DNA of 64,000 nucleotides from a virus. The stretch lies in IMG/VR virus record IMGVR_UViG_3300009506_000001, positions 64,001-128,000 of that record. One strand, 5' to 3'. The notes under the pieces were generated by a model, which did not search any database, was not told the DNA's origin, and was given only the letters and a program-made list of their open reading frames with translations. Each line of letters opens with the position of its first letter. Position 1 is the stretch's first letter. A program made the translations under genes and the position numbers. Below are positions 3,946 through 45,303 of this stretch, one piece after another.

Positions 3946-4317
3946 ATGGCACTCTACAAAGGCTACAGCACATTTGAGTATGAACGCAATAAGTCGCTCA
4001 AAATCACTGACCTCGAACTGGTAAAGTTGGATATCCTGAACCAAATCTTTACCCGTAAAGGCGAGCGTGTTATGATGCCTAATTTTGGGTCAATAGTCCC
4101 TGATATTGTTTTTGAGCCGTTAGACGACGTAACTCTTGCAATTCTGGAAGAAGATTTGAATGCGGTGGTAAATTTTGATCCTCGTGTCGATCTGTTAGAA
4201 TTCAGTTTGCAGCCTGATTATGACAATAGTTTGGTCACGGTTCACATGAAATTACTTTTTGTCGAGTTCGATCTTGTAGACGATGTCGACCTGAATATAC
4301 TCTTTGAGGGTTCATAA
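3946..4317 (+). CDS. Baseplate wedge gp25-like protein
   Basis: TRKGERVMMPNFGS...FEP...DPRV signature of the gp25 family. Confidence 0.9.
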   Translation: MALYKGYSTFEYERNKSLKITDLELVKLDILNQIFTRKGERVMMPNFGSIVPDIVFEPLDDVTLAILEEDLNAVVNFDPRVDLLEFSLQPDYDNSLVTVHMKLLFVEFDLVDDVDLNILFEGS

Positions 4318-7300
4318 TGAGCAGAATTATAAGCAGAGCAGAAGCCTGGGAACGTGCGTATGATGTGTTTCAGGAAGTAAACTTCAACGCATTTGACTAC
4401 AACTCAATCAAACAGTCGCTGATTGACTACATGAAGTTGTACTTCCCTGAGGACTTCAACGATTTCATCGAATCCAGTGAATTTGTTGCAATCATGGAAC
4501 TGTTTGCTTATGTTGGGGAACTGTTGTCCTATCGTCTTGACTTAAATGCTCACGAGAACTTCATCACACAGGCACAACGTAAAGAATCTGTTCTACGCCT
4601 AGCCAAACTGATTTCTTATACAGCAGCCCGTAACATTCCAGCTCGTGGTCTCACGAAGATGACATCCATCCAGACCACAGAGGCTGTCTATGATTCGAAT
4701 AGTGTTAATCTAGCTAACACAAAGATCAATTGGAACGACACAAATAATTCCAACTGGAAAGAGCAGTTTGTTCTTATTTTGAACCGTGTGTTGCGTCAGA
4801 GCTTTGGTTCTGTATCTCCAACTGAGCGTGTTCAGGTTGACGATGTCATTTTTGAACTTTACCAGCTTAATAATAACCCAATCACCAATGGCGTCTTCCC
4901 TTATACAGCAAATGTGTCAGGTAAGTCATACCCAATGGAGTTGGTGCCATCTTCCTTGGACTCCAATGGTCCATTAGAACGTCGTCCAGATAATACATCG
5001 GCATTTAGTATCCTTTATGGCTCTGATGGTCTTGGTGATGGTTCCGATACAACTGGTTTCTTCTTCTTTACAAAGCAGGGCTCACTTGCAAATCTCACCA
5101 CAACATTTGATGGTGTAACACCAAACCAGACCTTCGATATTACGGTCAACAACATCAACGACGCTGACGTTTGGTTTAACAACATCGACCCAGACACAGG
5201 TGAGACGATCGATGATGGCACGGTTGCAGATGGTGTTTCAGGTGAGTGGCAGGAAGTTGATCTTGCAAATGCTCAGAACATTATCTTCAACACAAACAGC
5301 CGTCGTCAGAAGTATGAGATCGAAACTCTAGCCAATGACCAGATTCGTTTAGTCTTTGGTGATGGTGAGTTCTCGGATATTCCTTCTGGTACGTTTCAGG
5401 CTTGGTACCGTACCTCTGCAAATGAAGACCTAGTTATTCCACAAAATACCGTTGTCAACAAAACATCAAGTTTCACATATGTTGACATTAGTGGTAACGT
5501 CCAGACGCTCACATTTACGTTCTCTCTGATCAACTCTCTGCAGAACGCTTCTCCATCGGAAGACATTGATCACATTCGTCGTGTGGCACCATCTGTTTAC
5601 TATACACAGGATCGTATGGTCAATGCTCGTGACTATAACGTCTTTATGCTCCAAGATCCTTCGATTTTAAAACTCCGAGCAGTCAATAGAACATTTGCAG
5701 GTGACTCGGCATATCTTGCATGGCACGACCCAACTACCACATACGAAAGTGCAAAACTAATTGGTGTGGATGGTGCATTGTATGTGGATCAACGAACGAA
5801 CACGGTTCAAACTGCAACGACAGATTTAACGGAGTTGGTTGATTCATACATCCAACCAATCCTTTCTACTACAGATTTCTTTACCATACTTGAGTCACAC
5901 AACCCTGCTGTGCCACTCAGAAAGACGTTCACACCTACACAGCGTACCAATCTAATTGATACGTTACAGGACATTGTTGATGGTATTCAGTTCTCACCTC
6001 TATATATTTACGTTGATGGTACAACCTTTGATTGGGAATTTGTATCAGGGGGTGGTTCAGTATCAGTGTCCCCACCAGGCCTAACGGATCCACTTATGGA
6101 CTTCGATACGCCAATCATCGAAGTTGTATATGATCCAGGTGCATCAAATGGTTTGATCTGGACAGTTAACTACCAAGGTGAGAGATATATTATCCAAAGT
6201 AATGGTACTCGCTTCTGGAACGTGAACCAGGGTAGCGTTATCGATTATGACACACTTAACACCGTTTCAGATACAATTACCTTGCTTCGGGCCAACTTGG
6301 ATGACACGTGGCAGGGTATACTAACACAGGATTGGGCATTCGACGTTGTTGGCCAAGAACTCAATGTTGACCAGACAACAGACATCAACCGTCTGAATGT
6401 TCTTCCTGTGGACGTAAATGGGGATAATATTCCTGACAACATGAGTTTGGACTATTTGTTCGATGGTGACTTGACACTCACGGTGTCCGCTGGTCAGGTC
6501 CAGTTACCGTTTACAGTTCTCTATAATGACTTTGTTGGAACGGGTTCACCAACAAGTGCGTTGCTTAGTGTATTGGGCGACGTGAGTGGCCCAATGCAGA
6601 TCGGTGTGGACTTTACGTTGCTTGAGCCAGATGGCACGACTGCAATTAGTGGTGAGTCGGGTAGTATCCTTTCTGTTCCAGCAGATGCAACAATCGTGCT
6701 TTCGAACAAAGACTTTGTTTACTTCACTCGAGCCGATTCAAGTAGCGACTGGGAACTTGCTGCCCCTGCTTCAACCACAGTGATCAACGGTTGGTACACG
6801 GAAACTGCAACAGCAGGAACCTATCCGGACAACTGGGACAACACAAGTGCCGTGTATCGTCGCCTTCGTGGTCGTACAGATTACAATTTCTCGTGGTTCC
6901 ATAGTGCAGAACGCTTCTCACTTATTGACCCTTCACAGTCAAACATCATTGACATGTTTGTCATTCCACGTGGATACTATACGGAGTTGACAGAATGGTT
7001 AAGTGGTGAAACGTCAGTTGAACCTGACGCACCAACTCCACTTGATCTACGTACAACGTATGGATATCTTCTTGATAGTAAGATGATTTCTGATACGGTT
7101 GTGTTACATCCCGGCCAGTTCAAAATTTTGTTTGGGTCTAAGGCTCCTTCAGGTCTCCGAGCAACGTTCAAGGTCATTCGTTCGTCAACAGCAAAACTCA
7201 CAGACAATGAAGTTAAGACCCGAATTGTTGGTGTGGTTGAAGAGTTCTTTGATATTAACTTGTGGGAATTTGGGGAGACTTTCTATTTCACAGAGTTGGC

Positions 7301-7493
7301 CGCAGCTGTTCACGACAATCTAAAGTCTGAGATTGATTCCATCGTCATAGTGCCTCTTTCTGCAGGAAACCAGTTTGGTGACATGTTTGAGGTGGTTGCT
7401 CGTGAAGACGAAATTCTGCAAGCTGACATTGGGGTCGAGGATATCGAAGTCGTCACGTCCTATACGTCACAAAATCTTCGTCAAGATATTTAA
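4317..7493 (+). CDS. Baseplate wedge gp6-like protein
   Basis: FDYNSIKQSLIDY...FNDFIESSEF, LVFGDG, EDIDHIRRVAP...QDRMVNARDY motifs; follows gp25. Confidence 0.85.
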   Translation: MSRIISRAEAWERAYDVFQEVNFNAFDYNSIKQSLIDYMKLYFPEDFNDFIESSEFVAIMELFAYVGELLSYRLDLNAHENFITQAQRKESVLRLAKLISYTAARNIPARGLTKMTSIQTTEAVYDSNSVNLANTKINWNDTNNSNWKEQFVLILNRVLRQSFGSVSPTERVQVDDVIFELYQLNNNPITNGVFPYTANVSGKSYPMELVPSSLDSNGPLERRPDNTSAFSILYGSDGLGDGSDTTGFFFFTKQGSLANLTTTFDGVTPNQTFDITVNNINDADVWFNNIDPDTGETIDDGTVADGVSGEWQEVDLANAQNIIFNTNSRRQKYEIETLANDQIRLVFGDGEFSDIPSGTFQAWYRTSANEDLVIPQNTVVNKTSSFTYVDISGNVQTLTFTFSLINSLQNASPSEDIDHIRRVAPSVYYTQDRMVNARDYNVFMLQDPSILKLRAVNRTFAGDSAYLAWHDPTTTYESAKLIGVDGALYVDQRTNTVQTATTDLTELVDSYIQPILSTTDFFTILESHNPAVPLRKTFTPTQRTNLIDTLQDIVDGIQFSPLYIYVDGTTFDWEFVSGGGSVSVSPPGLTDPLMDFDTPIIEVVYDPGASNGLIWTVNYQGERYIIQSNGTRFWNVNQGSVIDYDTLNTVSDTITLLRANLDDTWQGILTQDWAFDVVGQELNVDQTTDINRLNVLPVDVNGDNIPDNMSLDYLFDGDLTLTVSAGQVQLPFTVLYNDFVGTGSPTSALLSVLGDVSGPMQIGVDFTLLEPDGTTAISGESGSILSVPADATIVLSNKDFVYFTRADSSSDWELAAPASTTVINGWYTETATAGTYPDNWDNTSAVYRRLRGRTDYNFSWFHSAERFSLIDPSQSNIIDMFVIPRGYYTELTEWLSGETSVEPDAPTPLDLRTTYGYLLDSKMISDTVVLHPGQFKILFGSKAPSGLRATFKVIRSSTAKLTDNEVKTRIVGVVEEFFDINLWEFGETFYFTELAAAVHDNLKSEIDSIVIVPLSAGNQFGDMFEVVAREDEILQADIGVEDIEVVTSYTSQNLRQDI

Positions 7494-7557
7494 ACCACGA
7501 TTTTAACTGTTGGTTCCTTCTAATAAATACTTGGAACATCGTGGAGTATAAGAAACT

Positions 7558-10500
7558 GTGACCGACAATTCAGATTACACAAAGCCTAGAACCAATCTCT
7601 ATGACCTATTACCAGAAGTTTATAAATCTGGTGTCAATCGTAGTGTTCTAGAGGCATCCATTAACCGTTTCCTAACAAAGAGTCAGACAGACCGAGTTAT
7701 AGGATATATTGGGCAGGGTAATCCAAACGCTGCAATCAATCGTCAGATTGCGGAGCCAACTCCACAGCGTCAAGCATATCAGTTGCAACCAATGATCTAC
7801 AGCAAGATTGGCACTGTAGAACATATGGCATCCTTTAAAGACATTGAGAACGAATTAACACGCCTTGGTGTGGATCCGCTGCTAATGCAGGAGTGGGGTG
7901 ATGCACTTGCATTTAACTGGGCTCCCCCAATTGACTTTGATAAGCTAATCAACTACCGAAATTACTATTGGTACAATGAAGAAGACCCAACGGAAGATCC
8001 ACAGTACCTAACAATTCGTAGTGACTGTGTTCGTGCACAGGCAGCACTTGATGAATATAATCTTCTTCTTGATACAATTGGTGCTTTGCATGCAATAGTT
8101 GGTCTGGATGCAATGAATCACACTATCAGTATTGCAACAGACTTAACAGGTACATTTACGGAAGGTTTTATCTTCTATGTAAAGAATTCAACCAACAGCA
8201 CCATCAATGCTGAATTCTATACGGTTGTATCATCTGCGTACAATGCTGGTTCAGACGCAACAGTCATAACAGTTAATGTGAGTGGTTCACCTGTATTTGA
8301 TGATTCAATCATTGATGGTGATGTTTCGCTTGAAGAAGGTGTGAACATTTATGAAGCTGCACGGGACTGCTTCTGTGCTGGGGAAGTTGGTTGGTCTGGT
8401 GGGCTTTGGGATGATAACCAAGTTGGTACAGTGATATGGAATACACAGCTTATTCTAAGTATCAGCTATCCTAATGAGGCAGCTTGGTTGGCTGCTCACT
8501 GCCCGGGTTCACCAACGTGTCCAGAAGAAACAAATCTATGGTATGATACGAGTACAGATGAATTGAAGCAGTACAACGGCAGTGCATGGGTTGTTGTTCA
8601 GCGTAACTTTGGCAGTATCCTTGCAGTAACTACAGGTGGTAACACTTGGGATTACTCTAAGCAGTGTCACTTTGCATCCAATGATTGGATTACACAGAAC
8701 AAGTGGCTTCACCAAAACCAGGTACCTAACTTTTCAATTGCAAAGCAAGCTCAGATTCCTATTATTGAGTTTATTTCAACCATTGAGCTAAATGCGTGGA
8801 CAAAGATCACCTATATCTGGCAGTATCGTCCAGCATCAACGGAGCCTTGGGAAAGTGCGGCGGTTGCTCGTCCAAATCTTTTTGAGCTAATTGGTGTTGA
8901 TACTTATACGATTGATGTGGGTCTTCAAGAGATAGTGTTCGATGCTCGTTATGGTGATTTAACACCATTCCTTGAAGCTGGCACAGAAATTATTCTTGAT
9001 GGTACTACCGATAATGATGGCACATACACAATTGATTACTCGTTCTTCTGTGAAGAGGTAGCAGGACAAAAATATCAGACTCGAATTCGTTTAGTTGAAA
9101 CATTAACATCGACAACCGCTGATGGTATTATTACACCAGCATACACTTCACGTGGTGATGCATATGAAGGTGTGCATGTTCATTGGTCTTTTGTACAAGA
9201 GGACGAAGCCTTCCCAACCGTGTATATTCCGTTGAACCCAATGTTAGAACTTCCAACCAATCCTCCACTGCCAGCAGTAGCGGATACGTATTGGCAGTAT
9301 ACGCTAGGCTTATTTGCAGAGGAAATTCTTGCCACGACGAAGAGCCTTGGTACTCTAACTATTATAGGAGCCTCTTCGGGTTCCCCAACATATTGGGAGA
9401 TTGCAGGAGACCATACAGCAGCATTTTCCGATCCAAACCTAATCGGTGTTGGTGGAACTATAACTGTTAGTGGAAACCTGGGTGGTGGTAATACTGATTA
9501 CACTATAACAAGTGTATCGCTGGTTGGTGGAAATACTCGCATTGGTGTTGCAGGTTCGATTCCAGCAGCCGCAGTTGCAGCTACAACAAAGGGTGAGCTT
9601 TTTGCTCATTGGACATTCACTTTTGATTCATCGCTACGAGATGAAACATTAGAAGGTACAAACGACCTCCGTGTTTATATTGAGGATACTCGTCAGTATG
9701 GTAACTATGATGAGATCGCTGTTACAGGTTCGCCAACCCCCGATTGTTCATATGTGGGTGGAATCCTTATCCGTGCACCTCTAGAACAGTATCAGATGCT
9801 GCGTGTAGAGGTAGGTGCAGCCGCATGTTGTGATATTGGTTACAATTGGGTTGGTGTACGTACAAATACCGATGATGGTTCCTTTAACCCAGCCACCGAT
9901 CTTGAATGTGTCAGCTTGGTTCAGTTTAAGAAACTGGAACAGGTCAAGTCCGAAACAAACCAATATCCATTGTTTGACTTGTTTGATGTAGAAGGAAATC
10001 CTCTTAATGTTGCATCACGTATTTTTGCATTCCAAGAGTCGCAGTCCTATCCAGTCAATACACTTGTCAATAAGCGTATTGTTACAAGTAGTGATGGTCG
10101 AGATTATTACTTCGAGCAGTACCTAACACCAGAAGATAATGGTGTACTTTATGCCTACCGTGAAGCATCTAACTCTTTCTGGTATGACTCTGATAATGAA
10201 ATTTTGTATCAGTGGAAGAATGGTACTTGGAATCCAAAGATTGTTACAACAGATTTTAGTACTAGTTCTACAACTGCATGTTATGTTGCACCGGTTGTAA
10301 GTAATATGGTGCCAGGCTCACCATACATTGATGTTGATGGTATGCTTTGGTTTAATACTAACAACAATTCTGTATACGTTAGCGATGGTTCCAGTTGGAC
10401 ACTAAATTCACTGATAACTGCGGATGTTGTTATTAGTGATGCTGATCCAGGGCTAAACTCTATTTGGAGAACAGGACCAACAGATACAAGCTGTGCAGAT

Positions 10501-13500
10501 AGTGAAACTTATGTTCCAGAGTGGGTCGATGGTGATCGTAATCCATTAACTGTGGGTGATCCAAACGGTGACTGGGAAATTCCTGATCAGTTATACTTCA
10601 ACCCACTACATGAAAATCGCAAGGTCCTTTCCTACACCGATCTATACACCCATTTCACAAGCGTGATCAATGCTCAGGATGTGCCACCAGGATTCCTAGG
10701 TACACCAGCTGAAATGTTCCATGCTATTTTGGATGTTAACTATGGTGCGGGTGGCACCATGAAGGAATATAATAACAGCTACGATACCTTCTTGTCATCA
10801 ATCTTTAACCAGACCGTAAACCCAGTTGAGCTGTATGAGTTTGCTCATGATGCGTACGAAAATGCCATCAGTCAGTTGAAGGAATACTTCCGTCGAGATG
10901 CTTCCGTAACAATGGTTGATACTACACCTTCCACTGTCGCTGATCTGTCCACTGCCCTTACAGATGCAATTTTGTTCCTTTATGAATCAAATGATATTGC
11001 AAGTTTGGTGTATGGTGATACGACAGCTTATAATGCAACAACGGGGCTCGGTGTTAAAAACTGGCCTGCAACCTTACCATTCTTTGATATGGTTTACAAG
11101 GTTGAACCACAACAGATTTATGATCCAACAATCGGTTTGAATGAAATACTTCACCATGATGGTCATTACTCCCACATTGAGTTCAATCCAACAACAATTG
11201 AAACGGCTAACCGTAGAATTATTAGCACCACTGATACACGATCATCCAATCCAACTGGGAAGATGGGTGCTGCGGTTGCTTCGACTCCCCCAGATTCATT
11301 CCTTGCTTATCAAACTATGTTTGGTAACACATCGGCCCTTTATTGGTATGATACCTCCAATTCAAGAAACCGTATCATGTATCGTATGTCGGCCGTGGCA
11401 GTGGGTGAGATTGCTCCTGCTATAGATCTAGCGGAAGGTGCATTCTGGTATGACACAGCAGTTAACCAGCTAAAGATTCTTCAGTCTGGTAGTTGGGTAA
11501 ATGATCCAAGTGTTGGTCCAGGATATTTGAGTGATATCAGTAATGGATACTACGGTGCTTGGGAATTGATTGATTTTAACAAGTTGTTCTCGGATGTCAT
11601 TTACAACACAGAGACACGACTATGGGAAGCTGCTCCCGAAGATCCTACTTTGGTATTTGATTTTGATACTACATTTGCAGAGGATCCTGTGCTAACCGAT
11701 CAGCTATTTGAAGAGCAGTTTGCAAGTTTTGTTAGCCAGGCAGAGATTCTTGATCCTTATGCCAACGAAGAGTATATGAGTGATGATCCATATACTTGGA
11801 ATTATAAGACAGCCACTGTTAGTGGTAGCCCTCCATCATTAATGCCACAAGTGGGAGCATCTTATGTGTCCGGTGGCGATTGGCGTGATGTTTACCAGAA
11901 GCAATTAGGTACTCCGTATCCGCACTTTGAACCATGGGTACTTCAGGGGTATTACACAAAACCAGATTGGTGGGATACATCGTATCCAGCGGTTGCTGGA
12001 CGCCGTTGGTCCTCAGCAATGTGGACTAACATCGTTAGTGGTATTGTCCCTGCTGGAGAACTACTTGCTGATGGTAGTGTCAGTACAGGTGTTGCAGGAG
12101 AGGCAACACAGTACAATTACATTCCTGTCAACATGGACACAGGTGTTGTGAAGGATGGAGCTGGTAACACTTATAGCCCAGATGCTCTACTACCTCCAGT
12201 AACGATCCTCCCTATAACAAAGGGTGGTATCCCTAGCATCTACCCTATTCGATCAATTTGGACAGCCTATGCACAGGTTCCAAATGCGGCAGATGATTAC
12301 AACTATGACGATGCTGGGACAGTGGAATGGGCTTGGGAGAATTCCTCTCAGTACTTGTACGATAGCCTTAAGGTTGCATTCAAAATTCAACCTATTCGCT
12401 TTATTCATTCTACACTTGGTATCGATTTTGTATATGTCGGCTGCCTAAATGTTGACCAAAATACACAGAAGGTATATGCACACCAGAATACTTTGTTCCA
12501 TGGTGACCTGCAGCCAGACAATACCATCTTCCGTGTGCCTGGTACACTACAGTGGTATACAAACTACAACAGAGCTAGTGGATATGACATTAGTTCATCC
12601 AACTTCCGTCGTATGTGGTCAGGATGGGATACCTATCTATCTTACCAGTTCTCAACTGTAATCGATACGACTTCGTTAATCTTGTCAAGTACAATATTCG
12701 ATGTGGTAGAGGAAGACTACCAAGTTACATTGAAGCGTTCCCCTGGTATTGAGGATCACACAGTTGATGCATTGAAGGTTTCTATTCTCAAGTCGCCTCC
12801 AACTTTAATCAATCAAGATACACAGAGCCAGTGGACATTTAATGTTAGCTCGTACTCACCAACTGGTCGTCCAATGCCTTATTATGGAAGTCAAACCTAC
12901 AACTTTACGGTTGATATTGGTACGGATGTCCTAACATTGACAGATGTGTATGGACGTACTGCACCTTGGACAGATGGACAAGCTGTCTATCTATCATCAA
13001 CAGAATTCTTGCCTTCACCACTGTTGGCAGATACACCATATTATGTAACAAAGGTAGCTGCAAATCAGTATACCCTATCAACATCCCCAGGTGGACCAAT
13101 CGTTGATATCCTGAGTGCTGGTACAGGAACACAGTCCATATTCCAAGTTCAGTCAACCTTCACAGCACTGGAAGGTGCGACAACATCGGCTAATTGGTAC
13201 CACGTTGAGCTTGATACAGACCTAGTGCTAACAGCGACTCCACCAACACAGATTAACGGATTTCAGAACCTGATCTCGTTTATTGATGGTTACGCTGCCT
13301 ATGCAGCAGAGGTTGATAACTTTAGGTTCAACCACGCGGTAACGGATATTGATGCTGCAACTGGTAAGGTTACTAACTGGCAGCTAGAAGAAGAGCGTTT
13401 GATTAATTGGGCTTACAGTTCCCGTAAAGCAGAGCGGTTCCGTCGTGATCAGTATCCGGTAACTGCATTAGCTTCTACGGATACATTTACGTATAGTGAA

Positions 13501-16500
13501 CAGGCTCCGGGTGGTTGGACAACAGGAACTGTGGTGGATGTATTCACGGAAGGAACGCTGCCACAGCCTCTAGTTCCAAATACAACCTACTATATTATTC
13601 AGGATACAAGTTCAACATTTAAGTTGGCTATCACATCACGCAATGCTCGTAATGGCATTGCAATTGATTTACTCACGGATGGTGTAGGTGACCTATATGT
13701 CCGTGCTGCGCTTTCAGCTCAAACAGCTCCAACATTTGAAGTAAATCCATTTAAGTACAACCTGTGGATTGCAACACCAGAAGGCATTGTCTCGGATCTT
13801 GTAAAGGGGCCATTTGCAGATGTACGTACTAACCAGCTGTTACTAGATCAGTATGGCACTCAGTTGCCTTCAAGTGATGTATTGCCACTACGTGAAGATC
13901 AGCTAACACGTATTAATGTTCAGGAAGGCATTGAGAATACAGTGTCTCCAATTGCTCCACCAGGGTTTGAGTTGTACAACAACCTACATCTAACCAGTGC
14001 ACACATCTACATTGATGGATATGAGCACGTTATTCTATTCCAAGATTATGCAGCAACAGGTAATGTCATCTATGATTCATTCCTAGGGTTAAATACGGCC
14101 AAGTTTGATATACAGATGGACCGTAGTACGGAATTCTCCTTCCGACCAAACCTTGGTGGTTTTGTTTTAGTAGACAACAGCAATACGACTGGTCGATCTC
14201 GTTTCTCTCGTAACATTGAAGGTCAGGTTGATGACCTACGGTATGCGTATGATACATATCGAACAGTGGAGTCCAATAGGATTGTTGCGGAGGCCCGTGC
14301 TTCTTTGGGTTACGATGGAGCAAGGGATTACCTAAATGCTATTAACATCAATCCAAAGTCGCAATTCATTTTCTGGCGCGGAATGATTCAGCAGAAAGGG
14401 TCGGTAAACAGCGTGAAAGCATTTATCAATTCTCGTCGCTTCGTCGATGCAAAAATTGATGAGTACTGGGCTCGTAAGATTGCTGACTTTGGTAATGCCA
14501 ACGAATACACACTTCCAGAAGTGCAGCTATTTGCCTCTGATGGTAACTTAACGGAACTGCGTCTAGAATTTGTAGATCCAAATGAAACAGCTTCAACGGG
14601 CTTCATTGGTATTTCAAATAATGATCAAGATCGTTGGTATGAATATCCAAACCAGAAAGAATTCTTCGATGCAAACGGTAACATGTATTTCAATGCAGAG
14701 GCAACCTCTTTAGATGATTCACCAAGTTTTGTTCTATTTGGTGGTCATTACTATTATGAAACACCAGAGATATGTGATACGGTTGTTGCTACATACTATA
14801 ATTTTGATGGAAGCCCACATACAGACCAAACAGAGCGGTTGATAGAAGGAGTTGACTATATCCGAGTGAACTCTCGATTGATTGATTTTGGAACAACCAA
14901 TCCAACTACGGTATGGCCAAACCTAAAGGTTTACACAATCAATCCTGCAGAGCAGCGACACAATCCAGCCAAGGTGCGCGATGCTGTGGATGATTTGACA
15001 CTAACGAACGTTATTATTTGGGATCCAGCTCGTGGTCATCATTATCCTCAAGCCATCCAACTTGTAGATGTTACAGGACCATCGGATCCAGCTTTGATTC
15101 AATATGGTTACAGTGACAGCATAGATCCAGCACAGACAGCAGTAGGATCACCAGCAAGTCAGTATCCTTATGGTAGCAACGCTGTGAACACAACTTGGTT
15201 GGATTCCAGTCTCCTTGCATTTGTTCCTTACTCTGACACGGCAGTATTCACAGACACGTTTGAGAGACTACGTCGCTGGGGTAAACTAGCTGACTTTGGT
15301 GACTATAAGATGTACCAGTGGACCGAATCTGATGTTCCACCAAGCGAGTATAATGCAATTGCAGAAGAACAAGAGGGTGACATTACAATTGCTGAAAGTC
15401 AGCGCGTGAATGGCCGTGTCCGTGAAGTTGTGTATGAAGGTGACGGTGGATCTCCAATTGGATGGACAGAGTATCCATTTGAAGTGGAGGAGTATGCAAG
15501 CCGTATCGTTTATGGTGCCCCTTCATTCACAATTAGCAGTGCTCATCCAGCAACGCTATATGTAAATGGTTTGCTAGTTGGAACCTTCACAAGCTCAGCA
15601 GCTATCAGTGCAGAAATATCAGGCCTCGATTATACTGATGCAGATCATATTCATGTTGCAAAGTACTATCCAACAGATGCTGATATTGATGACATAACAT
15701 GGAAGAAAGATACACCATACACAACTGAACAGAAGGTTATTGATGGTGAGCCTGTTACTAAGTATTACTTCTGGGTTGGTGAAAAGACAGTTCGTCAGAC
15801 TTATCGGAATAAGGCTGTCACAATGGTGGAAGCACAAATCCAGTTGAATAAAGTGCCAGTGCCATACGTGATTGTTCAGAACATTGATACAGCTGGTTCC
15901 CCTACGCCATCGGTTGTTATTCCTCGTCGATACACACAGGCTATCATTCGTGGATTGAGTGCATATGTAAATGCCGATGATCGATACACATTACGGTTTA
16001 CACGTGATTTCACATACCGTGACAATCTATCAACGACCGATCCTTTATACGGCCCTGATAGTATTCAGAACCGCCACCAGGAATGGTCTATCTTTAGACA
16101 GGAACAGCAGTACTCAATTGATCGTGATCTATGGAACATCCTAACCGAATCAATTATCGGACAGACTCTAGCTTCACTAGGTGGAACAGCAGTGCGTGTA
16201 CCTTCCTTGAATAAAGAGCTATATGATGACGAGAATGACACGTCAACACGAATTGGTTTTGGTGATGGTCAAGCCTTTTGTGATGGTGCTTCTGGTTGGG
16301 AGGCAATTCTATCATACCTCCAGGATGGTAGTAACGACTTTGCCCCAATAGATATTAATACGTTCTTTGATACATGGGATCCACTATCGTTGACACCACG
16401 TGACTCAACAGATGCACAGACAATTGCAGACATGATGGATGATATCTATAATACCTTTACATATGAGAACGTAAACCGCATGTGGTTCTCAGCCTTGCTA

Positions 16501-16608
16501 ACTGCGGCACTGCCATACCAGCACCGATATGCAGATTTGTTTAAGACATCTTTCATCGCATTGCATGGTATTAGAATTTTGGAAACATCAGGACTGTTTG
16601 ATGATTAA
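7558..16608 (+). CDS. Very large (3016 aa) baseplate/tail structural protein, gp7-like N-terminus
   Basis: NLYDLLPEVY N-terminus, position after gp6, internal W-Y-D-T...Y-x-G-x-x-W repeats, two copies of an LPxPL...YY module, upstream TAAATA. Confidence 0.65.
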   Translation: MTDNSDYTKPRTNLYDLLPEVYKSGVNRSVLEASINRFLTKSQTDRVIGYIGQGNPNAAINRQIAEPTPQRQAYQLQPMIYSKIGTVEHMASFKDIENELTRLGVDPLLMQEWGDALAFNWAPPIDFDKLINYRNYYWYNEEDPTEDPQYLTIRSDCVRAQAALDEYNLLLDTIGALHAIVGLDAMNHTISIATDLTGTFTEGFIFYVKNSTNSTINAEFYTVVSSAYNAGSDATVITVNVSGSPVFDDSIIDGDVSLEEGVNIYEAARDCFCAGEVGWSGGLWDDNQVGTVIWNTQLILSISYPNEAAWLAAHCPGSPTCPEETNLWYDTSTDELKQYNGSAWVVVQRNFGSILAVTTGGNTWDYSKQCHFASNDWITQNKWLHQNQVPNFSIAKQAQIPIIEFISTIELNAWTKITYIWQYRPASTEPWESAAVARPNLFELIGVDTYTIDVGLQEIVFDARYGDLTPFLEAGTEIILDGTTDNDGTYTIDYSFFCEEVAGQKYQTRIRLVETLTSTTADGIITPAYTSRGDAYEGVHVHWSFVQEDEAFPTVYIPLNPMLELPTNPPLPAVADTYWQYTLGLFAEEILATTKSLGTLTIIGASSGSPTYWEIAGDHTAAFSDPNLIGVGGTITVSGNLGGGNTDYTITSVSLVGGNTRIGVAGSIPAAAVAATTKGELFAHWTFTFDSSLRDETLEGTNDLRVYIEDTRQYGNYDEIAVTGSPTPDCSYVGGILIRAPLEQYQMLRVEVGAAACCDIGYNWVGVRTNTDDGSFNPATDLECVSLVQFKKLEQVKSETNQYPLFDLFDVEGNPLNVASRIFAFQESQSYPVNTLVNKRIVTSSDGRDYYFEQYLTPEDNGVLYAYREASNSFWYDSDNEILYQWKNGTWNPKIVTTDFSTSSTTACYVAPVVSNMVPGSPYIDVDGMLWFNTNNNSVYVSDGSSWTLNSLITADVVISDADPGLNSIWRTGPTDTSCADSETYVPEWVDGDRNPLTVGDPNGDWEIPDQLYFNPLHENRKVLSYTDLYTHFTSVINAQDVPPGFLGTPAEMFHAILDVNYGAGGTMKEYNNSYDTFLSSIFNQTVNPVELYEFAHDAYENAISQLKEYFRRDASVTMVDTTPSTVADLSTALTDAILFLYESNDIASLVYGDTTAYNATTGLGVKNWPATLPFFDMVYKVEPQQIYDPTIGLNEILHHDGHYSHIEFNPTTIETANRRIISTTDTRSSNPTGKMGAAVASTPPDSFLAYQTMFGNTSALYWYDTSNSRNRIMYRMSAVAVGEIAPAIDLAEGAFWYDTAVNQLKILQSGSWVNDPSVGPGYLSDISNGYYGAWELIDFNKLFSDVIYNTETRLWEAAPEDPTLVFDFDTTFAEDPVLTDQLFEEQFASFVSQAEILDPYANEEYMSDDPYTWNYKTATVSGSPPSLMPQVGASYVSGGDWRDVYQKQLGTPYPHFEPWVLQGYYTKPDWWDTSYPAVAGRRWSSAMWTNIVSGIVPAGELLADGSVSTGVAGEATQYNYIPVNMDTGVVKDGAGNTYSPDALLPPVTILPITKGGIPSIYPIRSIWTAYAQVPNAADDYNYDDAGTVEWAWENSSQYLYDSLKVAFKIQPIRFIHSTLGIDFVYVGCLNVDQNTQKVYAHQNTLFHGDLQPDNTIFRVPGTLQWYTNYNRASGYDISSSNFRRMWSGWDTYLSYQFSTVIDTTSLILSSTIFDVVEEDYQVTLKRSPGIEDHTVDALKVSILKSPPTLINQDTQSQWTFNVSSYSPTGRPMPYYGSQTYNFTVDIGTDVLTLTDVYGRTAPWTDGQAVYLSSTEFLPSPLLADTPYYVTKVAANQYTLSTSPGGPIVDILSAGTGTQSIFQVQSTFTALEGATTSANWYHVELDTDLVLTATPPTQINGFQNLISFIDGYAAYAAEVDNFRFNHAVTDIDAATGKVTNWQLEEERLINWAYSSRKAERFRRDQYPVTALASTDTFTYSEQAPGGWTTGTVVDVFTEGTLPQPLVPNTTYYIIQDTSSTFKLAITSRNARNGIAIDLLTDGVGDLYVRAALSAQTAPTFEVNPFKYNLWIATPEGIVSDLVKGPFADVRTNQLLLDQYGTQLPSSDVLPLREDQLTRINVQEGIENTVSPIAPPGFELYNNLHLTSAHIYIDGYEHVILFQDYAATGNVIYDSFLGLNTAKFDIQMDRSTEFSFRPNLGGFVLVDNSNTTGRSRFSRNIEGQVDDLRYAYDTYRTVESNRIVAEARASLGYDGARDYLNAININPKSQFIFWRGMIQQKGSVNSVKAFINSRRFVDAKIDEYWARKIADFGNANEYTLPEVQLFASDGNLTELRLEFVDPNETASTGFIGISNNDQDRWYEYPNQKEFFDANGNMYFNAEATSLDDSPSFVLFGGHYYYETPEICDTVVATYYNFDGSPHTDQTERLIEGVDYIRVNSRLIDFGTTNPTTVWPNLKVYTINPAEQRHNPAKVRDAVDDLTLTNVIIWDPARGHHYPQAIQLVDVTGPSDPALIQYGYSDSIDPAQTAVGSPASQYPYGSNAVNTTWLDSSLLAFVPYSDTAVFTDTFERLRRWGKLADFGDYKMYQWTESDVPPSEYNAIAEEQEGDITIAESQRVNGRVREVVYEGDGGSPIGWTEYPFEVEEYASRIVYGAPSFTISSAHPATLYVNGLLVGTFTSSAAISAEISGLDYTDADHIHVAKYYPTDADIDDITWKKDTPYTTEQKVIDGEPVTKYYFWVGEKTVRQTYRNKAVTMVEAQIQLNKVPVPYVIVQNIDTAGSPTPSVVIPRRYTQAIIRGLSAYVNADDRYTLRFTRDFTYRDNLSTTDPLYGPDSIQNRHQEWSIFRQEQQYSIDRDLWNILTESIIGQTLASLGGTAVRVPSLNKELYDDENDTSTRIGFGDGQAFCDGASGWEAILSYLQDGSNDFAPIDINTFFDTWDPLSLTPRDSTDAQTIADMMDDIYNTFTYENVNRMWFSALLTAALPYQHRYADLFKTSFIALHGIRILETSGLFDD

Positions 16609-16619: not shown

Positions 16620-17726
16620 ATGGTAACTACAATTGATCCAGTAGCCGGGTTAGTTTCTTATGTAGAAGAAATCAAACCTTACCACTCAAAAATTATTGAG
16701 GTATTAGTTGAGTACATCCACACGGACTGTATTGATGTTACTATCACTGAAGACTTTGAGTTGGCACTGGGTGTTCCAGCAGATGTCTCGGCCTGGGGTT
16801 GGACCGAAGAAGAAGCTAACCGAATGTTCAATGACAACTGGACAAACTACCAGTTATCAGGAGCAAGTTCATCCGGTGGTTATTGGGAGATTAATGGAAA
16901 GTTTGACGCTGACTTTGTGCTCGGTGACAAAATCCTAATCAAGAATGAATACGGTTTTCGTGAGTACACCGTTACTAGTGCACTAGCATTAACAGCATCG
17001 GTGAATGGTACAACGGTTTACACAACACGTATCTACGTATCTGAAACGATTCCAGCTTCTGTGGATGCCACCATTGGTTCTCCACCACAACAAGTTCCTA
17101 TTGCGGGTGCAATTTTTCATTCAACTGCATATGCCTACGACGCTAATATAAACACTTATACATTGAAAGCTGGGCTTGTGTTTCCATCCCCTGCTGGAGT
17201 CGAGGAGCATGCCAACTGTGGTGGTTTTGGTACACAATTTGAAAGCGTGCTTCAGTCTGCAGCATTGGTTCCAAATTCCATTTTGGCCATCAATGCGGGC
17301 CTACGATATTTTGAGATAAGCAACACCCTTGCCGCACCAATATCGGGTGCCAGTACATGGGCAGATATCTTGAAGTATGGTGTGAAGTTTAACGTGTCCG
17401 GCACCGCCAGTGACGGCGAGTATACGGCATTTCTATCCGTTCCAAGTGGAGGCTCTCCGGATATCCTGAGAGTGTATGTACTCGAGGCAATCGCCTCCTC
17501 TGCGGGTGCAGGTGGCACTTTAACGGTACGAGAGTGGGGCTATGACGAACCGGACGTTTGCACAAATCAGGGCCAGTCGCTTGCTTTGGAATCCCGTGTT
17601 AGCGAAGTGGCCTCCATTGAGATAAACGACGTTTATTATAACTTCCTACATGGGTGGGATATGGGTCACTGGGACCTGGGTGGGTATGATGGTGGACCGT
17701 TCACTGTTATCATAACGTCCACCTAA
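16620..17726 (+). CDS. Virion structural protein (baseplate-associated)
   Basis: EIKPYHSKI N-terminal motif, GWD/GYD C-terminal motif, within the structural operon. Confidence 0.5.
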   Translation: MVTTIDPVAGLVSYVEEIKPYHSKIIEVLVEYIHTDCIDVTITEDFELALGVPADVSAWGWTEEEANRMFNDNWTNYQLSGASSSGGYWEINGKFDADFVLGDKILIKNEYGFREYTVTSALALTASVNGTTVYTTRIYVSETIPASVDATIGSPPQQVPIAGAIFHSTAYAYDANINTYTLKAGLVFPSPAGVEEHANCGGFGTQFESVLQSAALVPNSILAINAGLRYFEISNTLAAPISGASTWADILKYGVKFNVSGTASDGEYTAFLSVPSGGSPDILRVYVLEAIASSAGAGGTLTVREWGYDEPDVCTNQGQSLALESRVSEVASIEINDVYYNFLHGWDMGHWDLGGYDGGPFTVIITST

Positions 17727-19036: not shown

Positions 19037-20848
19037 ATGCAGATTAATGGCAATCTAAAATTTAGAACATTAGGCAAAGGTGAGTTGCAAAATGCAATCA
19101 TTGAACGCCTTGCATCTGCCCCAATAGGTGAACCGGGACGAATTTACTTCAATACGACCGATAATTTCTACTACTTCTTTGGTGCAGGTTCCCCAGCCGT
19201 ATGGGAAAAGATTGCACCAGGTTCTATTGCTAGTAACTTATTATTGGCGATGGGCTACGTAAATGTCGATGGTACATTCAATGCAAGTACATTTTCAACA
19301 TTCGCCGTTATTGGTTCACCAATCTCAAACCTAGTTGACGTACTACAGGCACTCGATTCACAATTCTGCCCTGCACTTTTGGATTTCTGCACTGTGGGAG
19401 CAACAACAGCAGCAGATCAGTTCTACTACAGTACCGCAGCTGGAACACTTGCTTTAGGAACAATAACAGCCGCAGGTCGTGCACTTGTTGACGACGCTGA
19501 CGCTGCCACGCAGCGTACGACACTGGGACTTGTTGCAGGAGGTGCAGGGGACATTTGGGTTGAGAAGGCTGGTGATACAATGACTGGTGTTCTATCGATG
19601 TCAACAGGCACATATATCACCATTCCTGATTTGCCCGCAAATCCAACCGATGCAACCAACAAAAACTATGTTGACCAGATTGCTTCTAGTATTCGTTGGC
19701 GTGAACCAGTTCAAGATCCAGATCTAGTAGATATTGTTTCAGCTGAACCGGTAGCTGATGTAACCGCAGTTGGTGATACTGTTACGTATATTAAGTGGGG
19801 TGGAACACAAGGTGAAATGTGGGGAGTTGGTTCTCCAGGTTCCGTTACAAATGTTGTAAATGGAGACATCCTTACATATAAACTTACAGATGCTGGAAGC
19901 CCGTTAGCTGGCACATGGGTCCGTATAGGAACTTTGGTAGCGGGCTCCCGTTTTATTATTGCTGCGGAGCATGGTCATATTCATTCGAGCCTCGCATTGC
20001 TTGGTTTCAACAACTATGATCTTATTGAATATGTAGATGGTGGTGGCTCACCAGGAACAAATCCTTACACAGCTGGTGCATGGACTCGTCCGGAGGGACT
20101 TGCAAATGTGGGTTCACCATCTCCAATAGATGGTTCACCAAACAACGAAATTCCTAATGGTACAACCGTACTGTGTAGTAACAGTCTTTCTTACCATGCT
20201 GGACATTCGTACTCCTATGACAGAATATCGGCTTCATGGATTGAAATATCAGGCCCAGGTGCTGTTCAGGCAGGCACTGGACTATCTTACAGTGGAAATA
20301 TTTTAAATGTAAACCTTGGTGCTGGTATTATTGAGTCACCAGCAGATGAAGTTGGTATTGATCTTTATGATACCGTAACAGGTGCAATTATTTTAACGAC
20401 AGATGGGACAACACGTTCAACAGCTGCAAATTCACAACTGCAACTACTGCTAACTCCATCGGGTGGATTGGTGCAGGATGCAACAGGCCTATCAGTTGAT
20501 CTTGCACTTGGTGGTTTGAATAATGTTACCGATACAGGTGCAGCCGCAGGCAATGTTCCAGTTGTATCAGACGGTAGCCCACTAGCATACACAGCTCAAG
20601 CACTACAGTTTAACTATGACTCGACCCTACACGGCGGTGCTGCAACAAGCCACACCATAACGCATAATTTGGGTCAGCAATTTGTGAATCCAACAGTATA
20701 CCTGCAGGACAGCAGCCCTCTGACATACAGACAAATTATTCCACAGAGTGTTACGTTGGATAGTGTAAACCAGCTAACTGTTACGTTTAACAAGGCAATC
20801 AACTGTGTGGTTGTGGTAATGGGTGTTCCAGGGGTGGGCCTAGCATAG
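19037..20848 (+). CDS. Tail fibre-like protein
   Basis: Gly/Thr-rich; VEKAGDTMTG and DATNKNYVD fibre motifs, AGTGL repeat, C-terminal THNL module; 8 GSP motifs. Confidence 0.7.
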   Translation: MQINGNLKFRTLGKGELQNAIIERLASAPIGEPGRIYFNTTDNFYYFFGAGSPAVWEKIAPGSIASNLLLAMGYVNVDGTFNASTFSTFAVIGSPISNLVDVLQALDSQFCPALLDFCTVGATTAADQFYYSTAAGTLALGTITAAGRALVDDADAATQRTTLGLVAGGAGDIWVEKAGDTMTGVLSMSTGTYITIPDLPANPTDATNKNYVDQIASSIRWREPVQDPDLVDIVSAEPVADVTAVGDTVTYIKWGGTQGEMWGVGSPGSVTNVVNGDILTYKLTDAGSPLAGTWVRIGTLVAGSRFIIAAEHGHIHSSLALLGFNNYDLIEYVDGGGSPGTNPYTAGAWTRPEGLANVGSPSPIDGSPNNEIPNGTTVLCSNSLSYHAGHSYSYDRISASWIEISGPGAVQAGTGLSYSGNILNVNLGAGIIESPADEVGIDLYDTVTGAIILTTDGTTRSTAANSQLQLLLTPSGGLVQDATGLSVDLALGGLNNVTDTGAAAGNVPVVSDGSPLAYTAQALQFNYDSTLHGGAATSHTITHNLGQQFVNPTVYLQDSSPLTYRQIIPQSVTLDSVNQLTVTFNKAINCVVVVMGVPGVGLA

Positions 20849-32845: not shown

Positions 32846-33466
32846 CTAGGCGATCTCCTCAAACCAAGTTGTGTAGTCACCTGGAAAATCAGCGGGATCA
32901 TACAGATAGGGCTCAGATGCAGCAATATGAAAACGCACTTGGTAGGAATCCCCTGCTAGAATAGGTGTTGTGCCATTAATAAAGTGAGGTTCACTAGGGA
33001 ACAAAACCAATGTGCTACGATTAGGATTGAAGCCAAATTGGTGCTGTGGGAATTCAACTTTGCCACCATATACTTCGAAGTCGCCATCGAATGGAACACA
33101 GTCTTGATAGTCACACAAAAATATGATACCCGTAAGGTCCCGATCTTTTGTGCGAACCCACTTCTTGCCCATATAGCTGCTGTTCTCGCAGTGAGGCTTT
33201 TCACCTTGGCAGCCTTGCGGATACCATTCGAACATCATTGTGGTGGTGCCACGATACTCAAACCCATAGTGCTCTTCGAGTTTTGGAATCAGTGGACGTA
33301 GGTGTTCAAATATTACCTCTTCGGAGCGATCATGTGATCGCATCGACTTAATAGGTACGTCCTCTACGTTTCGGTCGGGGTAATTGAAGTTGAGATCATC
33401 AACAATTTGTTCGCACAGAAGTGGTGACAGGAAATCCTGTACCACATAGAACGGTGACTTAACCAT
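32846..33466 (-). CDS. 2OG-Fe(II) oxygenase-fold protein (prolyl-4-hydroxylase-like, atypical ligands)
   Basis: RDLTGIIFL, YGGKVEFP and LVLFPS motifs; H-x-E in place of H-x-D. Confidence 0.7.
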   Translation of the reverse strand: MVKSPFYVVQDFLSPLLCEQIVDDLNFNYPDRNVEDVPIKSMRSHDRSEEVIFEHLRPLIPKLEEHYGFEYRGTTTMMFEWYPQGCQGEKPHCENSSYMGKKWVRTKDRDLTGIIFLCDYQDCVPFDGDFEVYGGKVEFPQHQFGFNPNRSTLVLFPSEPHFINGTTPILAGDSYQVRFHIAASEPYLYDPADFPGDYTTWFEEIA

Positions 33467-40618: not shown

Positions 40619-40622
40619 ATTC

Positions 40623-41625: not shown

Positions 41626-44175
41626 ATGAAGCATTATGGAATTGTTAACCCCGAAGGATCAATTATCATCAACCCTGTTGTTCCTTCGGGAACAAGTGAC
41701 CCTACCCAACCAGACACGGGTGAGTTATTCTTTCGGACTGATTCGAGTCGTTTGCAAGTATATGGTGGGGGATCTTGGGATAGTCTAATTCCATCAACCG
41801 AACTGTCTACTTTATACGGACCGTTGGCCGCCGACAACTCGTGGGCAGGTATTAACTCATTTCTGCAACCAGTTCTGATTAACGATCCCGTTCTTTCCAT
41901 TCTTGAAATTCGAGCAACAACAGCACCCTCGGATTCCGCATTTCAAGGTATGATTACAAAGCGGTACGATGGAACGCATCGTGGATTCTTTGGTAGCGTT
42001 CCAGGTGACGTGTCCGGATATGCTTACATTGCCACTTGGGACGACACTGGCAGCCCACAGGGTTGGAATAAAATTTTTGCGGGTTATCCAAACTCTAATG
42101 AGTTGAAGCTTGGAACGGGCAATGATTTTTACTTCAATGATATTCTTGTTGCAATGGCTGGCTCCACAAATACATTTACAGCAGCTAATACGTTTTCCAC
42201 ATCCTACGCTGTCACGGATCAAAGATTCTGGGACGGCGTTGATTCTTCTGGTGGTATTGTTATTGAGCAGGAGACCTCTAACAGCTACTCAATAGCATAC
42301 AACGACGATGGCGTCGGTAGTCTTTTTAATTCAACGTTAGCAGCTGTCAAGATTAGCTTCAACTCCTCAAATGGTTTCACTATTTCTGCACGACCACCAG
42401 CTGGTTCTCCAACGAGTGTATACACACCTGTATTTTATGCAAACCATGGATCCCAACTGCTTGCACTTGGTGCGAACCTCCAGTATGGTGGTGATAACGT
42501 TGCACTTGAGTCCCGTGCAAACTTATTCAAAGTTGGACAGACACTATATCATAACAACCCATCACTCAATTGGTTTGATACAGCAACTGTAGATCAAAAC
42601 TTTACAGCATATGTCCAAAGTGGTGTGTTCAACCTTCGTGGTATGTTGGACAGTTTTGTAACAACAGCCTTTACACCACTCAAAGTAGACTACAATGCTG
42701 ATACTCTTTACATTCAAAGTGGTGATATTACATTTAATGGTACATCTTTGCTAACAGGCGGCCTGCTGAGTAATCTTGCAGATGTTGATCTAACTGGTTC
42801 ACCTCCTCCACAGGTTGATGATATTCTCTACTATGCAGATGGTTCTCCTCCAACGTGGAAATTCAAAACACCAATCAAGAATGCATTGCTTCCTTATCAG
42901 TATACCGCAACAGCAGGACAGACAACGTTCAGTGGCACCGATGATAAAGGTATCACACTTGTGTATACACCAGGCTACTTGATGGTATTCCGGAATGGTA
43001 TCTTGCTCGATCCAGATGACTACACAGCAACAGATGGCACGAGCATTGTACTTGGTGCAGCTGCAAGCCTGAATGATACTATCAACATTGTTGGCTTTGG
43101 TACTTTTGATGTTGCCAATACTTACACGAGGACAGAGGCGGATGCAACATTTGCTCCTATTGCAAGAGCAAAACCAAACCTTATTATCAATGGTGACTTT
43201 CGTGTGTGGCAACGAGGTACATCGTTCGCAGCCGCTGTTGGTGTTTATACGGCAGACCGATGGAAGCAAGGTGGAAACCACGACGGTGCTATCACTGTCC
43301 AGAAAACTTCCACATACCTTGAAGTGGATGTAACAACCGCTGACACATCCATTGGGGCAGGACAGTACTGCCAGATGTTGTACGGCATTGAGGGATATGA
43401 TGTAGAGTTCTTGGGTTGGGGTACAGCAGACGCAAAAGATGTAACTCTTTCTTTCAAGCATGCTCACACAAAGACAGGAACATACTGTGTAAAGATTGGT
43501 AACGCTGCTGCAAATAGATCCTACATTGCAGAATACACCCAGGGTGTTGCTGACACTTGGGAAACATCCACTATTACTATTCCTGGTTGCACGGATGGTA
43601 CGTGGGAGGTAACAACCTCTGCTGGTATCTATATTGTATTCACTTACGCTGCTGGTAGCAACTATCAACTTCCTGGTAGTCCTCAACCAACCAACTCCTG
43701 GGAGGTAGGCAACTACCTCGCTTCGACTAATCAAGTAAATGCTCTGGATAGTACAAGCAACTATTTGAGATTTGATAAAGTGAAACTTGAAGAAGGTTCC
43801 ATTGCAACAGATTTTGAGCCAAGACCATTTAGTGAAGAACTCACTTTGTGTCAAAGGTACTACCAGAAATCGTACGAACAGGGAACGGCTCCTGGTAGTG
43901 TCACCGCCAATGGTGCTTGGAACTTGGCTGCGGACCGTGCTGCCTTGGTCCAATACATTAGTGAACCATTTTTGGTGATGATGAGAACAACACCAACGTT
44001 TGCTGTATATGGAACAACAGGAACAAGCAATGAGATTACGGGGGTTGATTCGGCAAGCCTTACTTTTAGCACTTTTGCTGCAACCGAAAGAGGAATCCAG
44101 AATGTTGCTGCAACTGCAGCATTTACAGCCACAGACAGATACCGCTTACATTGGACAGCAAATGCTGATTACTAA
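41626..44175 (+). CDS. Tail fibre protein
   Basis: ggag RBS before ATG 41626; GELFFRTD, LSNLADVD, YTATAGQTTF and NLIINGDFRVWQRGT fibre motifs. Confidence 0.8.
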   Translation: MKHYGIVNPEGSIIINPVVPSGTSDPTQPDTGELFFRTDSSRLQVYGGGSWDSLIPSTELSTLYGPLAADNSWAGINSFLQPVLINDPVLSILEIRATTAPSDSAFQGMITKRYDGTHRGFFGSVPGDVSGYAYIATWDDTGSPQGWNKIFAGYPNSNELKLGTGNDFYFNDILVAMAGSTNTFTAANTFSTSYAVTDQRFWDGVDSSGGIVIEQETSNSYSIAYNDDGVGSLFNSTLAAVKISFNSSNGFTISARPPAGSPTSVYTPVFYANHGSQLLALGANLQYGGDNVALESRANLFKVGQTLYHNNPSLNWFDTATVDQNFTAYVQSGVFNLRGMLDSFVTTAFTPLKVDYNADTLYIQSGDITFNGTSLLTGGLLSNLADVDLTGSPPPQVDDILYYADGSPPTWKFKTPIKNALLPYQYTATAGQTTFSGTDDKGITLVYTPGYLMVFRNGILLDPDDYTATDGTSIVLGAAASLNDTINIVGFGTFDVANTYTRTEADATFAPIARAKPNLIINGDFRVWQRGTSFAAAVGVYTADRWKQGGNHDGAITVQKTSTYLEVDVTTADTSIGAGQYCQMLYGIEGYDVEFLGWGTADAKDVTLSFKHAHTKTGTYCVKIGNAAANRSYIAEYTQGVADTWETSTITIPGCTDGTWEVTTSAGIYIVFTYAAGSNYQLPGSPQPTNSWEVGNYLASTNQVNALDSTSNYLRFDKVKLEEGSIATDFEPRPFSEELTLCQRYYQKSYEQGTAPGSVTANGAWNLAADRAALVQYISEPFLVMMRTTPTFAVYGTTGTSNEITGVDSASLTFSTFAATERGIQNVAATAAFTATDRYRLHWTANADY

Positions 44176-44187
44176 TAAGGAACAACA

Positions 44188-45303
44188 ATGAGTAAAAACC
44201 AAGAAGCTGCAGAAAGAGCATATAAAGAAACCTCAAATCCAAATATCATTATCAATGGCGATATGCGTGTTGCTCAACGAGGCACATCCTTTCCAGCAAT
44301 AACAAGTACGTATCACCTTGACCGCTGGACCTATGGAGCAAATAGTGATGCAGTTGTAACTATTAGCCAGGGGACAAATACTCCTGGTGGTTCACCACAG
44401 AATCTTTGTCCCTTTACCAAATACCTTGAATTGGATGTTACAACAGCGGATGGATCATTGTCAGCAGCACAATACAGCCACATATTGTATAATGTAGAAG
44501 GAAACGACGCTGAAATCCTCGCTATGGGTTCCTCCCTCGCTAAAGAGTTTACGATATCGTTCTGGCACGCCCATACGAAGACAGGTACACAATCAATAGC
44601 AGTCCGCAATAATGGTGGGTCACGGTCGTATGTTGCAGAGTACACACAGTCGGTAGCAGATACTTGGGAATATACGGAGATAACAATTCCTGGAGATACA
44701 TCTGGCGCTTGGACAACTGGAACAACTCTTGGATTGAGTCTTATTTTTACTCCTGGCACTAGTAGCACATATGCTGGAACTCCTGGTTTGTGGTTGAGTG
44801 GCAACTACATTGGATCTACCGGTCAAGTAAACAATCTGGATAGCACTAGTAACTTTTTCCGCATCACAGGTGTCAAGCTGGAAGTTGGGGGGTATGCCAC
44901 ACCTTGGGCACATCGTCCTTTTGCAGAGGAGTTGGCGTTGTGTCGTCGTTATTTTCAAACAAGCGACGCATACGGCACTGTGCCTTCAAATGGCGGACAG
45001 AATACAGTACAAAATGCCACTGTCGCTTACACAACTGTAGCAGGTCGGTGCCTAATAGTCCTACCAGTTGAGATGCGTACAAATCCAACAATGACTTACT
45101 ACCATCCCTTGAACGGATATTCGGGGTCTCCTGGGCAGGATGGTCATTGGCAGTATTATAACTCTGGTTACAATGATACAACCTCTGCCGTATCAACAGC
45201 AACAGGCAACACAAAGGTGATTTCGGTACAAATGCCTGGGTCTTACACAGTCAATGACAGTATGCTGACTATTGGCTCTTGGTCAGCATCCGCTGAACTA
45301 TAA
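44188..45303 (+). CDS. Tail fibre / receptor-binding protein, paralog of the upstream fibre C-terminus
   Basis: NIIINGDMRVAQRGT...HAHTKTGT...RSYVAEYTQ...EELALCRRYFQ aligns to the upstream gene. Confidence 0.8.
   Translation: MSKNQEAAERAYKETSNPNIIINGDMRVAQRGTSFPAITSTYHLDRWTYGANSDAVVTISQGTNTPGGSPQNLCPFTKYLELDVTTADGSLSAAQYSHILYNVEGNDAEILAMGSSLAKEFTISFWHAHTKTGTQSIAVRNNGGSRSYVAEYTQSVADTWEYTEITIPGDTSGAWTTGTTLGLSLIFTPGTSSTYAGTPGLWLSGNYIGSTGQVNNLDSTSNFFRITGVKLEVGGYATPWAHRPFAEELALCRRYFQTSDAYGTVPSNGGQNTVQNATVAYTTVAGRCLIVLPVEMRTNPTMTYYHPLNGYSGSPGQDGHWQYYNSGYNDTTSAVSTATGNTKVISVQMPGSYTVNDSMLTIGSWSASAEL

Follow-up and report, generated by a model that had tools for sequence, protein, structure and literature searches.

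To our knowledge, glycosylation of virions has been shown only for a few mycobacteriophages. The cases, represented by Che8 gp110, Corndog gp38 and Myrna, are due to Freeman et al. 2023 and are taken here as related in PMC12363180 and PMC11256854. [quoted passage not shown] Here we consider the tripeptide Gly-Ser-Pro (GSP), which recurs in the virion proteins encoded by a stretch of 64,000 nucleotides, called the window below, that spans bases 64,001–128,000 of the 155,245-bp viral contig IMGVR_UViG_3300009506_000001 (IMG/VR). GSP probably marks a site of covalent modification of some kind; with less assurance, we favour the reading that it is a Ser O-glycosylation sequon written by a phage module that includes a Maf-like protein. 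The phage is an uncultured T4-type jumbo myovirus, probably from marine sediment, and the closest cultured major capsid proteins (48–58% identity) are those of XacN1, Xoo-sp13 and RsoM2USA. CheckV puts the completeness of the contig at 44%, and the unassembled part of the genome comes to about 190 kb.

GSP in sheath, baseplate and fibre proteins

By six-frame translation, GSP occurs 38 times in 12 window proteins of about 7,600 amino acids in all, where per-protein composition predicts 2.49 occurrences; the original prediction, working from a hand count, had each per-gene number right, and its rough estimate of two to three by chance agrees with the computed value. All 38 lie in the 18 window genes assigned to the virion (2.97 expected), and the remaining 50 window genes have none (1.31 expected), in keeping with the earlier statement that enzymes lack the motif. 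Over the whole contig there are 72 occurrences against 10.2 expected (log10 P −35.5), the second-ranked tripeptide reaching only −5.4, and the part of the contig outside the window, used as a held-out test, gives 34 against 5.75. The comparison of structural with non-structural proteins, which had been proposed as a check, gives 71 against a composition-based 6.4 in virion genes (about 11 times chance) and 3 against 3.5 in other genes, a split that is partly the analyst's assignment, several hypothetical genes having been placed in the virion class by position and composition.

The excess is confined to the exact tripeptide: GTP, ASP, SSP, GPS, SPG and SGP are at background on the contig, Ser-Pro without a preceding Gly is not enriched there (50 vs 68), and no flanking consensus surrounds the sites. 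The motif is encoded by 32 distinct 9-mers with 54 TCN and 18 AGY serine codons, and of the plus-strand frames the coding one has 34 occurrences, the other two together 1. The many 9-mers, the use of both serine codon families and the restriction to a single frame indicate that GSP is selected as a peptide, and the protein-level signal that had been proposed is borne out. A DNA repeat or the insertion of a mobile repeat was rejected on these same grounds, together with the lack of a conserved nucleotide unit at the sites and the finding that 41 of 93 codons differ synonymously from those of a sister phage.

On the contig the motif is carried by no fewer than 24 proteins of the sheath, baseplate and fibres. 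Carriers in the window are given in Table 1; those outside it include the tail sheath, with four copies, a 1113-residue protein encoded beside the capsid operon, and the products of another group of putative fibre genes. There is no GSP in the tube, tape measure, portal, scaffold and capsid proteins of this phage, for which expected counts are too small for a test. In the capsid protein (contig 44580–46043, minus strand), a long insertion carries ASP at a place that GSP occupies in several relatives.

An alignment of 29 tail sheaths contains 33 GSP sites distributed over 19 positions, nearly all within residues 150–395, and the columns that hold them have a mean conservation of 0.28 vs 0.66. 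The AlphaFold model of this phage's sheath, which is of the T4 gp18 type, places its four sites in or at the edge of coils with a predicted local distance difference test score (pLDDT) below 50, in an inserted beta domain. In the 603-residue fibre-like protein, GSP is kept amid varying flanks, and among homologues it is gained and lost as short loop insertions; in five aligned copies of a beta domain of about 70 residues, one loop is short in two, holds GSP in two and holds SSP in one. Comparison with the sister phage shows GSP kept at 31 of the 41 sites that can be aligned, against a rate of 51% for control tripeptides made of small residues and Pro (Fisher P 0.003). The GSP feature is strong and under selection, and its sites are under purifying selection.

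Table 1. GSP-carrying proteins of the window and an oxygenase-like gene considered as a possible writer (window coordinates)
Feature	Length (aa)	Position	Strand	Family match	GSP count and remarks
Baseplate wedge subunit (gp6-like)	1058	4317..7493	+	phrog_10646, E 2e-275	1
Virion structural (baseplate) protein	3016	7558..16608	+	phrog_10938	10 (0.78 expected)
Virion protein	368	16620..17726	+		2; orthologue in G011 has 15
Fibre-like virion protein	603	19037..20848	+	phrog_16122	8
Protein in which the ~70-aa beta domain occurs twice	220	20862..21524	+		1
Single beta-domain paralogue	73	21524..21745	+		1, in lengthened loop
Single beta-domain paralogue	76	21755..21985	+		1, in the same lengthened loop as in the 73-aa paralogue
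Putative virion protein	145	22000..22437	+		2, both kept in sister phage
Conserved putative virion protein	388	22483..23649	+	phrog_11259	1, SSP in sister phage
PAAR-like N-terminus, linker and peptidase/endolysin domain	410	24690..25922	-	phrog_894 on residues 231-406	4; PAAR-like part called from sequence only, no Pfam match
Tail fibre protein	849	41626..44175	+	phrog_4492	5
Tail fibre paralogue	371	44188..45303	+	phrog_4492	2
2-oxoglutarate (2OG)-Fe(II) oxygenase-like gene		32846..33466	-	no Pfam match	assigned by sequence motifs

The GSP gene cluster is closed by a YiiX-like permuted papain amidase (window 23646–24179, plus strand), which has homologues in GSP-negative relatives.

Relatives with and without GSP, and a candidate glycosylation module

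An orthologue-matched test counts only homologues of the same virion proteins, and its values, like the paired values below, are GSP observed/expected. Among relatives at similar capsid identity (59–67%), the outcome is two-peaked. An excess of 6- to 17-fold is found in this phage (46/3.9, a ratio that is inflated because its own carriers defined the protein set), its sister (32/3.0), G001 (29/4.6), G003, G004 (12/1.6), G011 (43/3.1) and L193, and no excess is found in nine relatives, namely G009 (2/2.6), G010 (5/3.2), G013, G014 (0/2.2), G015 (2/2.3), G019 (1/2.0), G020, G027 and G030 (1/2.3). Since GSP is absent from the orthologues of the negative relatives, the fold does not need it. The GSP-rich jumbo records do not form one clade, the capsid and sheath trees giving four changes with several tips of undetermined GSP status, and a scan for a triple-GSP DNA pattern returned mostly low-complexity repeats plus one unrelated phage.

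The only complete GSP-rich relative, G011 (363,531 bp; GSP 86 vs 15.4), carries in an accessory region at 44–51 kb a module of two PF01973-like genes, a GT8 glycosyltransferase gene, four methyltransferase genes, a radical SAM gene, a sulfotransferase-like gene and the gene of a 266-residue protein whose structural neighbours include glycosyltransferase clusters of capsule synthesis; KdsA lies at 58 kb. Additional jumbo contigs hold modules of this kind, again with KdsA, which is nearby in four. Three of the module genes were not found in the near-complete GSP-negative G007, G009 and G010 or in the 330-kb G014 phage contig. The contig of this phage aligns mainly to bases 222–363 kb of G011, so that the module region falls in its missing part, and searches of this 44% fragment for PF01973, the GT8-like gene, the 266-residue protein and KdsA gave no match. 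A GT8-like homologue is also seen in phage P1, as PmgQ.

Further evidence comes from unrelated siphoviruses of 64–69 kb which were chosen solely by a Maf-like gene and which have GSP at 16/3.9, 14/4.5, 18/4.1 and 13/5.5, with most of the sites in virion genes, those of the tail included. Fragments of this siphovirus group selected by capsid give 6/1.4, 6/1.4 and 13/1.3, plus a broader Ser-Pro excess. No gene of the present contig matches siphoviruses G017 and G018, so fibres shared with this phage are no explanation for siphovirus GSP. KdsA is absent from the siphoviruses. In the module-bearing siphovirus G051, SPE reaches 23 vs 2.9 beside GSP at 18 vs 4.1, and the motif may be relaxed in its group. 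The nearest cultured capsid relative of the group, Tunturi_4, is distant, has a glycosyltransferase gene and shows GSP at 4/1.6.

The module-bearing fragments G016, G047, G048 and G049 are without most virion genes and so uninformative, and a walk along a 301-kb module-bearing contig ended short of virion genes. In sample ERZ23498827 a scaffold very rich in GSP (27/1.6) is accompanied by one that bears the module and has the same guanine-plus-cytosine content; codon usage gave no link, and the two were not counted as one phage. The probable source run and three others, compared with the G011 module at 80% likeness, gave short scattered pieces only, too little to be informative.

The Maf-like protein of G011 is a single stand-alone domain of 257 residues that matches PF01973/DUF115 at 37.4 bits (cut-off 34.6). 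Its predicted structure (pLDDT 95) finds its best match in the Magnetospirillum Maf 5mu5 (Z 14.3, root-mean-square deviation 4.5, 202 aligned), covering residues 241–510 of that chain at 10% identity, and has a CstII/GT42-like modified GT-A fold; further matches are MptE/HPPK (Z 10.5), CstI 2p56 (Z 9.5) and thiamine pyrophosphokinases. The Maf profile has no sequence match in the PDB.

We would propose that a phage-encoded cytoplasmic glycosyltransferase module adds a sugar to the Ser of Gly-Ser-Pro loops on the outward-facing sheath, baseplate and fibre proteins. The stand-alone Maf-like domain is the likely initiating enzyme, and the sugar, supplied by a cytidine monophosphate (CMP) donor, may be Kdo or another ulosonic acid related to it; KdsA nearby is only suggestive of CMP-ulosonic acid transfer by the Maf-like protein. 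The GT8-like gene, the third glycosyltransferase-like gene and the methyltransferases may then extend and cap the glycan. Such a coat could shield the virion or alter adsorption, and selection for more sites would account for the repeated gain of GSP through short loop insertions. For the present phage, we infer that the module lies in the roughly 190 kb that were not assembled. The suggestion that GSP marks exposed sites for a dedicated enzyme, one part of the original prediction, gains support from the loop positions, the selection and the comparative genomics, and of the chemistries it listed O-glycosylation is the best supported; among its other options, Pro hydroxylation by the 2OG oxygenase of the window and phosphorylation by PrkA are disfavoured, as taken up below.

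Weighing the explanations

Several observations weigh against glycosylation by the Maf-like module. The link between enzyme and motif is indirect: the assembled part of this genome does not show the enzyme, and the module and GSP stand together on one contig in only one jumbo genome. Counted by lineage there are two positive and four negative cases (one-sided Fisher test, 1/15 = 0.07 by hand), and the siphovirus group yielded no module-negative member for contrast. No glycosyltransferase was found on the contig, which is 44% complete and was covered by targeted searches for the module and otherwise by eye, not by a full family scan; the earlier statement that the window holds no identifiable modifying enzyme stands, and holds likewise for the rest of the contig. 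The Maf-like fold is shared with the kinase MptE/HPPK. In the 40 dereplicated loci with more distant Maf homologues, GSP reaches only 68/41, ranking 75th of 1558 tripeptides, and phage D3, whose orf7 is a distant Maf-like protein, has 1/2.5; the weak signal in the one and its absence from the other imply that the reader of GSP is only a Maf subfamily or else another gene of the module. Finally, we know of no strict sequon for Maf enzymes. In D3 (5951–6409, 7748–9143) and PAJU2 the distant Maf-like gene directly follows the capsid gene, and D3 has a methyltransferase nearby.

In its boldest form the proposal would make GSP a strict and portable sequon of three residues for O-glycosylation, with a small stand-alone phage Maf-like transferase as its reader. 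The module would pass between unrelated phage groups, the virion proteins would go on to acquire acceptor loops by the tens, and sequence alone would suffice to predict the glycan coat. We advance this form tentatively, at somewhat short of an even chance.

The strongest alternative, in itself unlikely, is that GSP is modified by another writer or another chemistry: the GT8-like or the 266-residue glycosyltransferase-like protein acting first, phospho-transfer by the Maf/MptE fold, or action of a cytoplasmic enzyme of the host. Because the genes of the module occur as a set, co-occurrence singles out no one of them; the fold also matches HPPK and thiamine pyrophosphokinases, and a distant Maf gene alone does not predict GSP. 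Set against this, the structure matches best to Maf, which is known to glycosylate protein Ser/Thr, with HPPK 3.8 Z units lower, and the neighbours of the Maf-like gene are glycan-building genes, while a host enzyme would leave the link to a phage module unexplained.

It is less probable still that GSP is an unmodified docking tag, whether its partner is a chaperone, a surface ligand of the host, or a protein of the decoration or fibre kind. Purifying selection on an exact tripeptide in exposed loops is what any recognition motif would show, but three residues without a flanking consensus leave a partner little surface to bind, none of the contig's non-enzyme genes is shared with the GSP-rich siphoviruses, and it is the enzyme module that tracks the motif in relatives.

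We regard as very unlikely the view that GSP is no more than a beta-turn favoured in extracellular proteins rich in beta structure, or a low-complexity word that drifts in loops. Gly, Ser and Pro are turn formers and the sites do lie in loops; however, the lack of any excess in the orthologues of the nine relatives, at comparable capsid identity, largely refutes this reading, and neither the unenriched GTP, ASP, SPG, GPS and non-Gly Ser-Pro nor the use of both serine codon families agrees with it.

The poorest candidate is an enzyme encoded on the contig itself, whether the 2OG oxygenase hydroxylating Pro, PrkA (present in four GSP-rich jumbo records) phosphorylating Ser, or a phage protease cleaving at the motif: the oxygenase occurs in ten relatives that are GSP-negative, PrkA is in the GSP-negative G014 contig and G007, both are absent from the GSP-rich siphoviruses, and ten cuts in the 3016-residue baseplate protein would be implausible.

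PrkA belongs to a PrkA-YeaH-SpoVR gene trio (contig 134444–139345, minus strand) that is patchy among relatives, and a retropepsin-like (PF05618) protease (window 33466–34371, minus strand) has homologues in GSP-negative relatives. Other features concern the host or stand apart. A permuted, two-piece transfer-messenger RNA gene (window 60667–60996, minus strand; Rfam RF04321, 114 bits) encodes a tag peptide ending in LRLAA and is a possible hint to the host, and a secreted-type protein (contig 152837–153484, minus strand) ends in a VPLPA-CTERM-like sorting signal, recognised by eye, which suggests an exosortase-bearing proteobacterial host. A caspase-like (C14) peptidase with a C-terminal membrane anchor (contig 148751–149848, minus strand) was likewise recognised by eye.

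Comparison with known systems

If GSP is an acceptor sequon, glycosylated virions would be common in the jumbo myoviruses and siphoviruses of marine sediment and recognisable from sequence, and a minimal tag with a 257-residue cytoplasmic transferase would be at hand for site-specific O-glycosylation. Literature searches, with subscription papers mostly outside their reach, found no description of a GSP motif in phages. By analogy, the GSP system may work like the virion glycosylation of mycobacteriophages and like Maf flagellin glycosylation, its membership of either not being established.

With the mycobacteriophages it would share phage-encoded glycosyltransferases that decorate the phage's own virion proteins, which the summaries consulted report as shown there and which is inferred here. 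As summarised, the mycobacteriophage system modifies capsid and tail tube and has neither an internal sequon nor a Maf-like enzyme described for it; in contrast, the motif here is on sheath, baseplate and fibres, and as judged by GSP neither the capsid and tail tube nor the portal of this phage would be an acceptor, several relatives having one site in the capsid insertion.

The cultured capsid relatives Xoo-sp13, RsoM2USA and XacN1 resemble this phage, XacN1 having the same order of baseplate genes, but XacN1 has no GSP excess (1/1.7). Large proteins encoded at 251–263 kb of XacN1, beside a GT8-like gene, contain mucin-like tracts of Thr-Pro (TPT 74 vs 6.7), and at 214–215 kb a GT9 gene follows its baseplate genes; judged by these features, XacN1 is a candidate for virion glycosylation in its own right.

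The Maf flagellin O-glycosyltransferases of Magnetospirillum (5mu5), Geobacillus and Clostridium share the PF01973 domain with the G011 candidate, whose model matches 5mu5. They glycosylate Ser/Thr in the cytoplasm with CMP-ulosonates including Kdo, and in the jumbo contigs KdsA stands near the module in four. The G011 protein differs in being a lone catalytic domain, where 5mu5 is a chain of 632 residues, and so departs from the three-domain architecture; its gene lies not beside a flagellin gene but in a phage accessory region, and it would read a short sequon on many proteins.

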